Positions 37,263 through 47,406 of a DNA stretch of 64,000 bases are shown piece after piece. Source of the stretch: Flavobacterium sp. (lineage in GTDB: Bacteria > Bacteroidota > Bacteroidia > Flavobacteriales > Flavobacteriaceae); NCBI GenBank assembly GCA_043731625.1, contig JAYTIV010000073.1, positions 227 through 64,226 of the forward strand, in the 5' to 3' direction. Under the pieces are notes generated by a model that saw nothing but the letters and a program-made list of their open reading frames with translations, had not been told where the DNA came from and searched no databases. The translations under genes were made by a program, and so were the position numbers. Position 1 is the first letter of the stretch. Every line of letters starts with the position of its first letter.

Positions 37263-37802
37263 ATGAAATCATTTGTTATGTTGCTAATTGTAATGGGGTT
37301 ATTTTTTCCTTCTTATTCTCAAGTTAAAAAAGAAGAAGGAAAAGATGAAGGTTTGAAAATGGAAGAATTACCCGAAATTGTAATTAAAAGAGCCGGAAAA
37401 GATTTCTCTATTTATTTGCCAGATAAAAACATTGATAAAAATGTTCGACAATTGGAAGAAAAATTTATTTCCTATGATCTCGGTAAAGATTATGAAGGAT
37501 ATGAAAACTATTTAGTTGTAATGGAACTACCAAAAAGTACTTTATCTGCAACTTATAATTCTGAAGGTAAATTAATCGATGTAGTTGAGAATTATGAAAA
37601 CGTAAGATTACCTGCAAAAGTTATTTACTCTGTTTATAAAGCCTATCCAGATTGGAAAATTGTAAAAGATAAATTTCTTTACACACAAAAAGACGGAGAT
37701 GTTATCAAGAAAGAATACAATCTTAAAATAAAAAAAGATAAAAAAACAAAAAATTTAACCGTTAATCCAGAAGGAACAATTCTTAAAGATTGTTGTGATT
37801 AA
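37263..37802 (+). CDS. Exported hypothetical protein (PepSY/BLIP-like beta fold), paralog 1
   Basis: Signal peptide; ELPEIVIK, Y.LGKDYEGYEN, LP.KVIY.VYKAYP.W shared with 38158-38697. Confidence 0.7.
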   Translation: MKSFVMLLIVMGLFFPSYSQVKKEEGKDEGLKMEELPEIVIKRAGKDFSIYLPDKNIDKNVRQLEEKFISYDLGKDYEGYENYLVVMELPKSTLSATYNSEGKLIDVVENYENVRLPAKVIYSVYKAYPDWKIVKDKFLYTQKDGDVIKKEYNLKIKKDKKTKNLTVNPEGTILKDCCD

Positions 37803-38157: not shown

Positions 38158-38697
38158 ATGAAAACATTTAGTATAATTTTAATTTTTCTGGGCATGTTAA
38201 CCACCTCATATTCGCAAGAAGAAATCAAGAATGATTTAGATAATGAAGTTCTAAAAATGGATGAGTTACCAGAAATTGTAATTAAAAGTGTTGGCAAAGA
38301 TTTTTCTGTGTATTTGCCTGATAAAAATCCAGACAATAAAGTGAAAAATTTACAGCAAAAGTTTATTGCTTACAATCTTGGAAAAGATTATGAAGGATAT
38401 GAGAATTTTTTAGTTGTTATGGAAACCAATGATGGCTCACTAACAGCTTCTTATAATTCAAATGGAAAATTGACTCGAGTAATTGAGAAATATCAAAACG
38501 TAAAACTACCAAGTAAAGTTATTTATGCTGTATATAAAGCTTATCCAGGATGGCAATTAGTAAATGATAAGTTTTTGTATACTCAAGAAGATGGCGATAT
38601 TATTAAAAAACAATATCAAATAAAGATTAAAAAAGATAATGAAACACGCAAATTAGTTATACATCCAAATGGAGATTTTATCAAAGACCTTAACTAA
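38158..38697 (+). CDS. Exported hypothetical protein (PepSY/BLIP-like beta fold), paralog 2
   Basis: 179 aa, collinear with 37263-37802. Confidence 0.7.
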   Translation: MKTFSIILIFLGMLTTSYSQEEIKNDLDNEVLKMDELPEIVIKSVGKDFSVYLPDKNPDNKVKNLQQKFIAYNLGKDYEGYENFLVVMETNDGSLTASYNSNGKLTRVIEKYQNVKLPSKVIYAVYKAYPGWQLVNDKFLYTQEDGDIIKKQYQIKIKKDNETRKLVIHPNGDFIKDLN

Positions 38698-43295: not shown

Positions 43296-43397
43296 TTAGC
43301 CCCGATAGCAGTGGAAATCCTTTTTATACCTGTCAGGTTTCAAAAACCTGACAGGTATAAAAAGATTGCAACGAATAGCGGGAAATAGCTTCTAAAA
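43296..43397 (+). repeat. Dispersed structured repeat, Flavo-1 RNA-like (copy 2) with nested palindrome
   Basis: Same flanks as 32442-32520; central stem is TTTTTATACCTGTCAGGTTT-CAA-AAACCTGACAGGTATAAAAA (43321-43363). Confidence 0.6.
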
Positions 43398-45108: not shown

Positions 45109-47406
45109 TTATTTATGACTTTCAGGTTTTAACGCTTTCTTCATTCCTTCTTTTTCTTTTCTTTCTGCTGCTTTTAATGGATATAAATGGGATATTCCAG
45201 CTATGTACTGATTCGGAATATCATCTGGTTTAAATTGTTCGTAGGCTTGAGCATTTCGTACAAAATTCGGATCTAGCAATAATGGTCTTCCCAGCGCAAC
45301 CAAATCAGCTCTACCATTCAATAGAATCGTATTTACTTGATCAATGTCTTGAATGTAACCTGTTGTTATTGTTGGGATATGCGTTTCATTTCGAACCAAA
45401 TCTGAAAATGGAGTTTGCCACATTCTACCTATTTGTGGTTGCTGATTTTCGACCGTATTTCCGGTAGAAACGTTTATAATATCTGCTCCAGCATTTTTGA
45501 AAGTATTTGCAATTAATACTACTTCTTCTTCAGTAATACCATTATCTGCCCAATCTGAAGCTGAAATTCTTACCGACATAGGTTTGTTTTCATTAAAAAC
45601 TTCACGCATTGCCACAAAAACCTGCAAGGGAAATTTTAGTCTATTTTCAATGCTTCCGCCATATTTGTCTTTTCGAATGTTGGTCAATGGAGATAGAAAA
45701 GAAGCTAATAGAAATCCGTGATGTGCTTGCAATTCAATCATATCAAATCCTGCTTCATCTGCATTTATAGTTGCTTGAACAAATTCTGATAAAATGGTAT
45801 TCATATCGGCAACCGTCATTTGTTTGGGTGCTTTCATCGCATTTGAAAAAGGAATTGGTGAAGCCGAAATCAAATCCCAACCATTTTTTACTAAAGGTAT
45901 ATTAGATCCAACAGTTGGCACGTTTACAGAACCTTTTCTGCCGGAATGTCCTAATTGAATTCCGATTTTAGATTTACTATTTAAATGAACATATTTAGTA
46001 ATTTTTTTCCATTTAAGTGTTTGCTCTTCAGACCAAATTCCAGCACAACCTAAAGTGATTCTTCCTTTTTTGGAAATGGCGGTCATCTCTGTCAAAATCA
46101 ATCCTACACCACCAGTTGCTCGAGCACCATAATGCACCAAATGCCAATTGTTTACCAATCCGTTTTCGGCAGAATATTGTCCCATAGGCGACATGACAAT
46201 TCTGTTTTTAAGATGCATACCTCTCAAAACTAAAGGAGTAAAAGCAGCAGGTGTTTTTACTTTGAAATTACCAATATTACAATTGAATTCGGTTAATACT
46301 TTTTCTGTAAAAGTAGCATCACGAAGTGCTAAATTTTCATAAGTTACCTTTTTAGAACGCGTCATCACACCAAATGCAAATTGCATAAAATCGTGTTGCA
46401 TATGACGATCCATATGTTCAAACCAATCCAGTGAGACAATGGCTGCGTGCTGAATCATTTCTACACGATTACGACGTAGTTTTTCGTAGTTTTCAAATAC
46501 TTTGGTTTTATTGGTTTTATATTCTAGTATACTATCTGCAAGTGCAATGGCACATTCCATCGCTAGTTTAGTTCCAGAACCTATAGAATAGTGAGCGGTT
46601 GCTTTTGCATCACCTAATAACACAATGTTATTATGAAACCATTTTTGGTTGGTAACATGAGGAAATTGACGCCAATGTGATTTATTGGAAATTAAGGCAT
46701 GTCCGTCTAATTCCTCAGCAAAAATTTCTGCTAATTTTAGAATGGTATCCTCTTCTTTTGAAGTTTCGAACCCAATATTCTCCCACGTTTTTTCTGAACA
46801 TTCAAATATCCAAGTACTCATTCCTTTTTGATATTGATAGGAATGGGCAACAATGGTTCCGTGTGGTGTTGATCTAAAAAAATAAGTAAAGGCATCTAGT
46901 GGTTTTGTTGAACCCAACCAAACAAATTTGTTTTTTTGCAATGTGATTTTAGTGCCAAAATTTTTGGCATATTTTTCTCGAATTGGACTATTAATTCCAT
47001 CACATGCAATAATATAATCGGCATCTTTAAACTGTGAAACATCGTCAATGTTGTGTTCAAAATGTAGTTTTACACCTTCTTCAACACAACGTTGTTGGAG
47101 TAATTGAAGTAATGTTTTTCGGGAACAACCACAAAAACCATTTCCTGTAATCCTTACAACTTCTCCATCACGAGCCACATCAAGGTCATCCCAATAGGCA
47201 AATTTACTTCTAATTAATTCATATGATTTTGGATCTCTAGAAAGAAATTCGCTCAATGTTTCGTCTGAAAAAACAACACCAAACCCAAAACTATCATCTG
47301 CTTTGTTCTGTTCATAAATATCTATTTCACAAGACGGCATTGCTTTTTTTAATAAAATCGAAAAGTATAAACCTCCAGGACCACCACCAATTACAGTTAT
47401 TTTCAT
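45109..47406 (-). CDS. Anthraniloyl-CoA monooxygenase / salicylyl-CoA 5-hydroxylase with fused old-yellow-enzyme domain
   Basis: GGGPGGLY, FGFGVVFSD, GDAKATAHYSIGSGTKLA; OYE domain NRIVMSPM, QLGHSGRK, R.DKYGGS.ENR; active-site segment is ELQAHHGFLL. Confidence 0.9.
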   Translation of the reverse strand: MKITVIGGGPGGLYFSILLKKAMPSCEIDIYEQNKADDSFGFGVVFSDETLSEFLSRDPKSYELIRSKFAYWDDLDVARDGEVVRITGNGFCGCSRKTLLQLLQQRCVEEGVKLHFEHNIDDVSQFKDADYIIACDGINSPIREKYAKNFGTKITLQKNKFVWLGSTKPLDAFTYFFRSTPHGTIVAHSYQYQKGMSTWIFECSEKTWENIGFETSKEEDTILKLAEIFAEELDGHALISNKSHWRQFPHVTNQKWFHNNIVLLGDAKATAHYSIGSGTKLAMECAIALADSILEYKTNKTKVFENYEKLRRNRVEMIQHAAIVSLDWFEHMDRHMQHDFMQFAFGVMTRSKKVTYENLALRDATFTEKVLTEFNCNIGNFKVKTPAAFTPLVLRGMHLKNRIVMSPMGQYSAENGLVNNWHLVHYGARATGGVGLILTEMTAISKKGRITLGCAGIWSEEQTLKWKKITKYVHLNSKSKIGIQLGHSGRKGSVNVPTVGSNIPLVKNGWDLISASPIPFSNAMKAPKQMTVADMNTILSEFVQATINADEAGFDMIELQAHHGFLLASFLSPLTNIRKDKYGGSIENRLKFPLQVFVAMREVFNENKPMSVRISASDWADNGITEEEVVLIANTFKNAGADIINVSTGNTVENQQPQIGRMWQTPFSDLVRNETHIPTITTGYIQDIDQVNTILLNGRADLVALGRPLLLDPNFVRNAQAYEQFKPDDIPNQYIAGISHLYPLKAAERKEKEGMKKALKPESHK

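Follow-up and report, generated by a model that had tools for sequence, protein, structure and literature searches.

The 64,000-nucleotide stretch of Flavobacterium sp. DNA analysed here (assembly GCA_043731625.1, contig JAYTIV010000073.1, positions 227 to 64,226; hereafter the window) carries a minus-strand gene cluster whose central product is a 765-residue flavoenzyme of the AbmA/SdgC family. The enzyme has the architecture of that family, ~760 residues with an N-terminal flavin adenine dinucleotide (FAD) monooxygenase, here residues ~1–372 (PF01494), fused to a C-terminal old yellow enzyme (OYE) domain, here ~386–737 (PF00724). Its best NCBIfam match, PRK08255/NF006101, scores 992.6 bits over positions 1–761 and misses the curated cut-off of 1078. 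Flanking genes encode an aryl-coenzyme A (CoA) ligase, a thioesterase, a nitrilase-branch C–N hydrolase, a bicupin ring-cleaving dioxygenase, a fumarylacetoacetate-hydrolase-family (FAH) enzyme, a maleate isomerase and a flavin-reductase-like protein (Table 1). A known relative is 2-aminobenzoyl-CoA monooxygenase/reductase (ACMR, AbmA; EC 1.14.13.40), whose reduction step is that of an enone and would use a His pair and a Tyr of the OYE domain. In the window enzyme this site is altered, with Gln in place of the first His, and the enzyme is probably an anthraniloyl-CoA 5-hydroxylase serving the adjacent ring-cleavage genes.

The active-site segment, IELQAHHGFLLAS (residues 557–569), is read from the translation of the open reading frame (ORF) at 45109–47406; the string quoted in the preliminary description, ELQAHHGFLLASFLSP, spans 45735–45688. 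The segment aligns gap-free to IELHMAHGYLLSSFLSP of the Thermus scotoductus OYE (3hf3; E 1e-81), pairing IELQAHHGFLL with IELHMAHGYLL. In CrS numbering the residues concerned are His172, His175 and Tyr177, with roles in substrate binding and as proton donor (PMC10787880, excerpt; sources so marked are cited from part of their text). The preliminary description held that the catalytic His and Tyr had been lost. This is right for the first His, now Gln560, and for the Tyr, now Phe565; the second His is kept as His563, and there is an extra His at 562. The intact HxxHGY reductase site of all abm-type loci read is therefore absent, the window enzyme having QAHHGF. The rest of the domain resembles thermophilic-like OYEs (TsOYE/CrS, YqjM) in its fold, in the second His and in the flavin-site residues Gln484, Arg613 and Arg707; Gln484, His563 and Arg613 are preserved across every group compared. 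It differs from those enzymes in Gln560, in Phe565, in having Gly409 for the Cys of their SPMC motif (a Cys that His-type AbmA enzymes also lack), and in its fusion to a monooxygenase. An AlphaFold model (pLDDT 91.2, from a 32-sequence alignment) has a complete OYE barrel that superposes on 3hf3 with a TM-score of 0.97 and a root-mean-square deviation of 1.2 Å at 44% identity; the prediction is thus a TIM barrel of the thermophilic-like type with a putative flavin site.

The altered site is conserved. Among the close homologues (the best 120 of 8000, the window's own protein included; the names shown are Flavobacterium), Gln560, His562 and His563 occur in 120/120 and Phe565 in 118. Chance is rejected by this conservation, and a sequencing error or strain-level damage by it and by the lack of an internal stop in any of 75 genus matches. 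Decay of the OYE domain is rejected as well: the ratio of non-synonymous to synonymous substitution (dN/dS) in Flavobacterium is 0.068 here as against 0.042 in the FAD domain (29 disjoint pairs, 84 genes), which is purifying selection, and the OYE/FAD divergence ratio lies only slightly above that of a His-type Bordetella-like set. Because the flavin-site residues are kept and selection is purifying, the domain is altered and maintained, not lost, and it probably still binds flavin. In the wider family, many distant full-length homologues (50% representatives, P0129–P0261) have a badly degenerate OYE motif, and to judge from these sequences outright decay of the domain also happens.

The form of the site follows the gene neighbourhood. 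A pool of 196 loci was drawn from genome loci, plasmid records (hand-picked for spread or because they carry the dioxygenase or nitrilase gene), a single metagenome scan that used the Caballeronia enzyme and chosen genome regions; 14 had no readable motif and were dropped, leaving 182. Ring loci were those with the enzyme beside the dioxygenase, and β-oxidation loci those adjoined by at least two genes for short-chain dehydrogenase/reductase (SDR), enoyl-CoA hydratase, acyl-CoA dehydrogenase and RidA, a set that is not linked to the enzyme in the window. At positions 560 and 565, the 80 ring loci comprise 72 Gln/Phe, six Gln/Tyr, one Gln/Asn and one His/Phe, so that Gln is found in 79; all 59 β-oxidation loci are His/Tyr (HxxHGY). 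The 43 loci that were short or of neither class divide into 22 Gln/Phe, 20 His/Tyr and one Asn/Tyr. No intact HxxHGY enzyme stands beside this dioxygenase at any of the 182 loci, and genes for the reduced product are near 0 of the 101 Gln enzymes. Companion genes divide in the same manner: a nitrilase is present at 79/80 ring loci versus 0/59 β-oxidation loci, the flavin-reductase-like gene at 78 versus none, and the isomerase at 70 versus one.

The proposal that the motif would track with neighbourhood, which had been put forward as a check, is thus borne out in three lineages, with a single exception (L236, below). As a marker of the pathway, it is the His-to-Gln change at 560 that serves, together with Cys443Ala and a change of Ala562. 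The proposed QxHHGF is the Flavobacterium form only, and Tyr-to-Phe was rejected as a marker since six ring loci keep Tyr. The companion expectation, that HxxHGY goes with β-oxidation neighbours, does not always hold: actinobacterial HxxHGY enzymes adjoin RidA, FAH, small cupin and thioesterase genes, a third context. Some loci hold only part of the system. L225 (G1077:C82) has a divergent Gln-type copy (60% identity) and a flavin-reductase-like gene; the 20 kb read there holds neither a ligase gene nor ring genes. Conversely, a dioxygenase–FAH–nitrilase block occurs with no nearby monooxygenase at L099, L100, L189, L243, L101, L240 and L241, where its neighbours in Ruegeria, Shinella and Sulfitobacter are iorAB and a thioesterase gene, and in Embleya genes for tryptophan dioxygenase and kynureninase; such blocks may take indoles that are already 5-hydroxylated.

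Gln-type enzymes form clades in four lineages: Flavobacterium, Burkholderiaceae, Novosphingobium and Streptomyces. Those of Burkholderiaceae read QAGHGY or QAGHGF, stand beside iorAB, thioesterase, dioxygenase, FAH, nitrilase and isomerase genes, and are 74–80% identical to His-type enzymes with β-oxidation neighbours but only 43–45% to the Flavobacterium enzyme; 120 relatives of one of them comprise 65 Gln-type, 53 His-type and two unread. Two Novosphingobium loci, fetched via the dioxygenase with the motif unknown, both have Gln (QAGHGN and QAGHGF), and their enzymes are sister to roseobacter His-type enzymes (SH-aLRT support 99.5). The PRK08255 cut-off is passed by Gln-type enzymes of Caballeronia (1333 bits) and Novosphingobium (1129 bits). 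The Streptomyces clade (120 proteins, P0126 and P0404–P0522; gene context unread) has Gln throughout, mostly as QYGHGH, and its branch is long in the OYE domain, at 0.50, compared with 0.15 in the FAD domain; it could be the clade of SdgC. A search for a plasmid copy close to this clade gave a best match of 61%, and viral contigs gave no match.

A 31-protein tree built with the motif columns removed requires four changes. The approximately unbiased (AU) test rejects a single origin both for the four Gln clades together (p 2.5e-6 for the FAD domain, 0.0015 for the OYE domain) and for the Burkholderiaceae and Novosphingobium clades (p 0.001 and 0.0005); the trees come from quick LG+G4 searches, and the amino-acid composition of the Flavobacterium rows is unusual. 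Spread of a single Gln-type OYE domain by domain swap is rejected for the four clades jointly, though not for Flavobacterium with Novosphingobium. Parallel changes were sought at sites conserved across 15 or more of 17 His-type enzymes. In each of the four clades Cys443 has become Ala, His560 has become Gln and Ala562 either His or Gly; Gln650 is altered in all four (to Glu in three), Lys491Arg is common to three, and three clades have lost Tyr565, as has part of the fourth. Sites changed in three or four clades number 9 of 142 conserved sites in the OYE domain and 1 of 122 in the FAD domain. On these alignments and trees the Gln variant is real, conserved and convergent.

The surrounding genes form a recurrent module: ligase, thioesterase, nitrilase and dioxygenase are found in all 56 of the 80 genome loci with at least 6 kb downstream. 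The ligase is 45–53% identical to abm-cluster ligases and is likely an anthranilate-CoA ligase. The nitrilase motif is present in 80/80 copies examined. The dioxygenase finds its next-best structure match, after 3bu7, at E 1e-64; it scores 301 bits against the gentisate 1,2-dioxygenase family TIGR02272 (cut-off 442), and its subgroup is 55–65% identical internally versus ~40% to annotated gtdA genes. The isomerase is assigned as a maleate isomerase by alignment of both Cys motifs (GYACLVA, SACVQM) with 4fq7, the Cys residues of which we take to be catalytic. The flavin-reductase-like gene upstream of the monooxygenase, missing from the first list of the cluster, is a core member; the AHSA1/SRPBCC gene is probably accessory. 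Within the 333-bp gap between ligase and thioesterase genes lies a perfect inverted repeat with arms of ~20 bp (43321–43363, found by eye), and in relatives such gaps of the cluster often hold additional genes as insertions. Beyond the isomerase are tandem paralogues of 179 residues (37263–37802 and 38158–38697) with signal-peptide-like starts, the second matching nothing in Pfam or NCBIfam. Scans for promoters and terminators gave signal at chance level.

Table 1. Genes of the cluster and residues of the OYE-domain active site, in window coordinates.
Feature	Position	Strand	Remarks
Fused FAD monooxygenase + OYE-like domain, AbmA/SdgC family, Gln-type variant, 765 aa	45109..47406	minus	
Ala443	46078..46080	minus	Cys in 16/17 His-type enzymes; each of the four Gln clades has Ala; codon placed from ORF start
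Active-site segment, residues 557–569	45738-45700	minus	translation of ORF 45109-47406
Gln560	codon 45729-45727	minus	CAA; takes place of first catalytic His
His563	codon 45720-45718	minus	second catalytic His, retained
Phe565	codon 45714-45712	minus	takes place of catalytic Tyr
AHSA1/SRPBCC protein, 151 aa	47461..47916	minus	PF08327; in some relatives only
FMN-binding split-barrel flavin-reductase-like protein, 201 aa	47920..48525	minus	PF01613; 3bpk E 6e-42, NbaA 4z85 E 5e-29
Aryl-CoA ligase, 526 aa	43510..45090	minus	TIGR02262 311.7 bits, below cut-off
4HBT-type thioesterase, 140 aa	42754..43176	minus	PF13279, PF03061
Nitrilase-branch C–N hydrolase, 327 aa	41706..42689	minus	motif LACGENTNT; PF00795; best PDB matches nitrilases
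Bicupin ring-cleaving dioxygenase, GDOsp (3bu7) subgroup, 368 aa	40522..41628	minus	3bu7 E 1e-155
FAH-family enzyme, 302 aa	39529..40437	minus	PF01557
Maleate cis-trans isomerase, 249 aa	38777..39526	minus	4fq7 E 2e-94, full length

These genes suggest a route from anthranilate. The ligase would form anthraniloyl-CoA, and the FAD domain would hydroxylate C5 to a dienone intermediate that escapes reduction and re-aromatises, so that Gln-type enzymes would by default release aromatic 5-hydroxyanthraniloyl-CoA and not a reduced cyclohexenone. The thioesterase would then liberate 5-hydroxyanthranilate, and the cupin dioxygenase would cleave it between C1 and C2 with the nitrogen retained. The resulting maleamoyl-pyruvate would be split by the FAH enzyme into pyruvate and maleamate, from which the nitrilase-family enzyme would liberate ammonia, and the isomerase would convert maleate to fumarate; pyruvate, ammonia and fumarate would be the end products. 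A probability of roughly 0.6 is given to this reading as a whole. Its residues, their conservation, the link to neighbourhood, the separate origins and the purifying selection are observed; every reaction is inferred. For the OYE domain, a new role could be to aid re-aromatisation, to re-reduce an air-oxidised quinone-imine or to hold the dimer together. An OYE can isomerise without hydride transfer, but that activity needed Tyr (PMC5574032, excerpt), so a tautomerase role finds little support here. There is precedent for the aromatic product, which the known enzyme yields under limiting NADH (PMC3534580, excerpt).

Several points weigh against the proposed route. The preliminary description called the reductase disabled or repurposed; the domain has indeed changed, but 'disabled' goes too far for a domain under purifying selection, and single mutants of a related OYE stay active, AfOYE1 H211L, H214L and Y216F each retaining ~30% activity and a CrS Tyr177 variant 20% (PMC10787880, excerpt). 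Since single OYE mutants keep this much activity, the residues alone are no proof of lost reduction. His-to-Gln is one base change and an easy path under relaxed selection too, and for Flavobacterium with Novosphingobium the FAD domain rejects a common origin (6e-5) but the OYE domain does not (p 0.32). The locus counts are non-independent: 70 of the 80 ring loci are from Bacteroidota, a few may share a genome, and most β-oxidation loci are near relatives from one metagenome scan, so the raw counts overstate the contrast; reduced to independent lineage pairs with context there are three, all in the same direction (sign test p 0.25). Six of the 80 ring loci retain Tyr565, and the Flavobacterium ring locus L236 (13029–15386, G1119:C1), with a full ring module, reads HSQHGF. 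This site, with His at 560, Gln at 562 and Phe kept, is likewise not intact, and the swap suggests, from a single case, that positions 560 and 562 are coupled. The nearest solved relative of the dioxygenase (3bu7) is named gentisate 1,2-dioxygenase, and the C–N hydrolases belong to the nitrilase branch and are not known amidases.

Three rival readings were weighed. If the domain still reduces the dienone, with a proton from water or His562, the motif would merely travel with a ring module that handles an aromatic side product. The intact modelled barrel, the kept flavin-site residues, the dN/dS and the 20–30% activity of OYE mutants (PMC10787880, excerpt) agree with this, as does Arthrobacter Rue61a, where hydroxylated as well as reduced CoA esters are seen (PMC3534580, excerpt); its plasmid enzyme is His-type, one CoA ester may in the authors' view derive from the reduced product, and the strain does not grow on 5-hydroxyanthranilate. 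The same substitutions nevertheless recur in separate lineages, the reduced-product genes are lacking beside Gln enzymes, and the host genome (88% complete) holds no close match to the abm β-oxidation proteins (best 28–35% identity), so continued reduction is improbable. Alternatively, reduction may be lost and the substrate be salicylate, passing as for SdgC from salicylyl-CoA through gentisyl-CoA, gentisate and maleylpyruvate to maleate, with the nitrilase acting upstream on an aromatic nitrile. This fits the NCBI family name (salicylyl-CoA 5-hydroxylase), the nearest solved dioxygenase and a known salicylyl-CoA route to gentisate (PMC13215587, excerpt), and gentisate cleavage followed by FAH and maleate isomerase requires no C–N hydrolase. 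Yet the nitrilase is near-constant in ring loci and comes from two lineages only 29–32% alike, both with nitrilase-type motifs (CGEN, CWEN), and the dioxygenase falls below the gentisate family cut-off in a subgroup of its own. Moreover, iorAB, markers of loci taking auxin via isatin to anthranilate (PMC9613470, excerpt), are found with a cyclase in Burkholderiaceae copies, in seven of eight ring loci of that type, and the ligase in none. Because the nitrilase is so constant and iorAB replaces the ligase, anthranilate is favoured and salicylate is unlikely.

A last alternative keeps the hydroxylase-only enzyme but removes the nitrogen before cleavage, 5-hydroxyanthranilate being deaminated to gentisate by the nitrilase-family or flavin-reductase-like protein. 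It matches the dioxygenase's name, and the sequence anthranilate, 5-hydroxyanthranilate, gentisate, maleylpyruvate is known for Nocardia opaca (PMC4539516, excerpt). Domain annotation with NCBIfam and Pfam finds no aryl deaminase of known type in the cluster, and nitrilase-superfamily enzymes, which act on a carbonyl or nitrile carbon, are not known to attack aryl C–N bonds. Early deamination is very improbable. The 5-hydroxyanthranilate (gentisate) route of N. opaca is reportedly due to Cain (1968).

The proposed nitrogen-retaining route can be set beside these systems. It shares with that of N. opaca a 5-hydroxyanthranilate intermediate and pyruvate as product, but the latter passes through gentisate, whereas the window route would be CoA-dependent and likely nitrogen-retaining through cleavage (PMC4539516, excerpt). 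With the abm/ACMR clusters of Azoarcus evansii the window shares the two-domain family, a related aryl-CoA ligase and a thioesterase, and its enzyme is 42–47% identical to abm-type enzymes adjoined by genes for SDR, hydratase, acyl-CoA dehydrogenase and RidA; it differs in the His-to-Gln, Tyr-to-Phe and Cys443Ala changes and in having a ring-cleavage module in place of β-oxidation genes. A. evansii AbmA is known here through PMC4539516 and PMC3534580 (excerpts), not by its sequence. GDOsp of Ruegeria (Silicibacter) pomeroyi (3bu7) is ~60% identical to the window dioxygenase and is the cupin of a nitrilase–cupin–FAH–isomerase block beside iorAB and a thioesterase; it differs in being named a gentisate dioxygenase and in having no monooxygenase within 9 kb of the block. 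SdgC we take to be the salicylyl-CoA 5-hydroxylase of Streptomyces sp. WA46. It belongs to the same family (PRK08255) and is described as supplying a hydroxylated aromatic CoA ester to gentisate cleavage (PMC13215587, excerpt), but the window cluster adds a nitrilase, a maleate isomerase and a flavin-reductase-like gene, and its relatives point to anthranilate.

A bolder version of the proposed route is tentative and, taken whole, doubtful: three or four independent conversions of a dearomatising monooxygenase/reductase to a 5-hydroxylase through Cys443Ala, His560Gln, Ala562Gly/His and mostly loss of Tyr565, the OYE domain gaining a new selected role and each conversion being coupled to nitrogen-retaining cleavage of 5-hydroxyanthranilate. 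Because the module is served by true nitrilases of two unrelated lineages, ring opening may yield a nitrile and not an amide (cis-3-cyanoacrylate after hydrolysis). Variovorax paradoxus also carries Gln-type enzymes (P0348, P0379). For V. boronicumulans a 2026 paper calls an auxin intermediate 3-hydroxyanthranilate from retention time and mass, and '5-hydroxy' is absent from its main text (PMC12852158); whether it is the 5-isomer may deserve a check.

Of 150 Flavobacterium genomes, 72 have the enzyme and 71 the dioxygenase, 69 being common to both lists. The enzyme is rare in the Bacteroidota samples outside Flavobacterium: a phylum sample has it in 3/400, all Flavobacterium, and a class sample in 3/400, one in another family. 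A class-wide sample centred on G744 and aimed at Proteobacteria gave 0/300 besides G744, and no outgroup was gained. The host genome encodes kynureninase and tryptophan dioxygenase, in line with anthranilate, which arises from tryptophan breakdown, as the substrate. No paper on the Gln variant or on a hydroxylate-and-cleave route was found in the open-access literature, and none of the four aerobic anthranilate routes of a 2015 review matches the proposed route in full (PMC4539516, excerpt). The Gln change likely marks an uncharacterised hydroxylate-and-cleave pathway. Databases name His-type and Gln-type enzymes identically; the two probably differ in their products and in the pathways they supply, and one residue would separate them in annotation. 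The analysis offers a gene set for a CoA-dependent 5-hydroxyanthranilate route that is common in Flavobacterium and tied in Burkholderiaceae to iorAB, genes linked to auxin breakdown (PMC9613470, excerpt). It also presents a bifunctional flavoenzyme that has been rewired repeatedly in nature, a clean case in which single-step intermediates (Gln with Tyr; the HSQHGF swap) make residue roles testable. A nitrile as the ring-opened product would mean new dioxygenase chemistry. If the conversions were indeed repeated, about half of the sampled Flavobacterium species would have an undescribed anthranilate pathway, and some Burkholderiaceae would gain the missing lower route of auxin breakdown.

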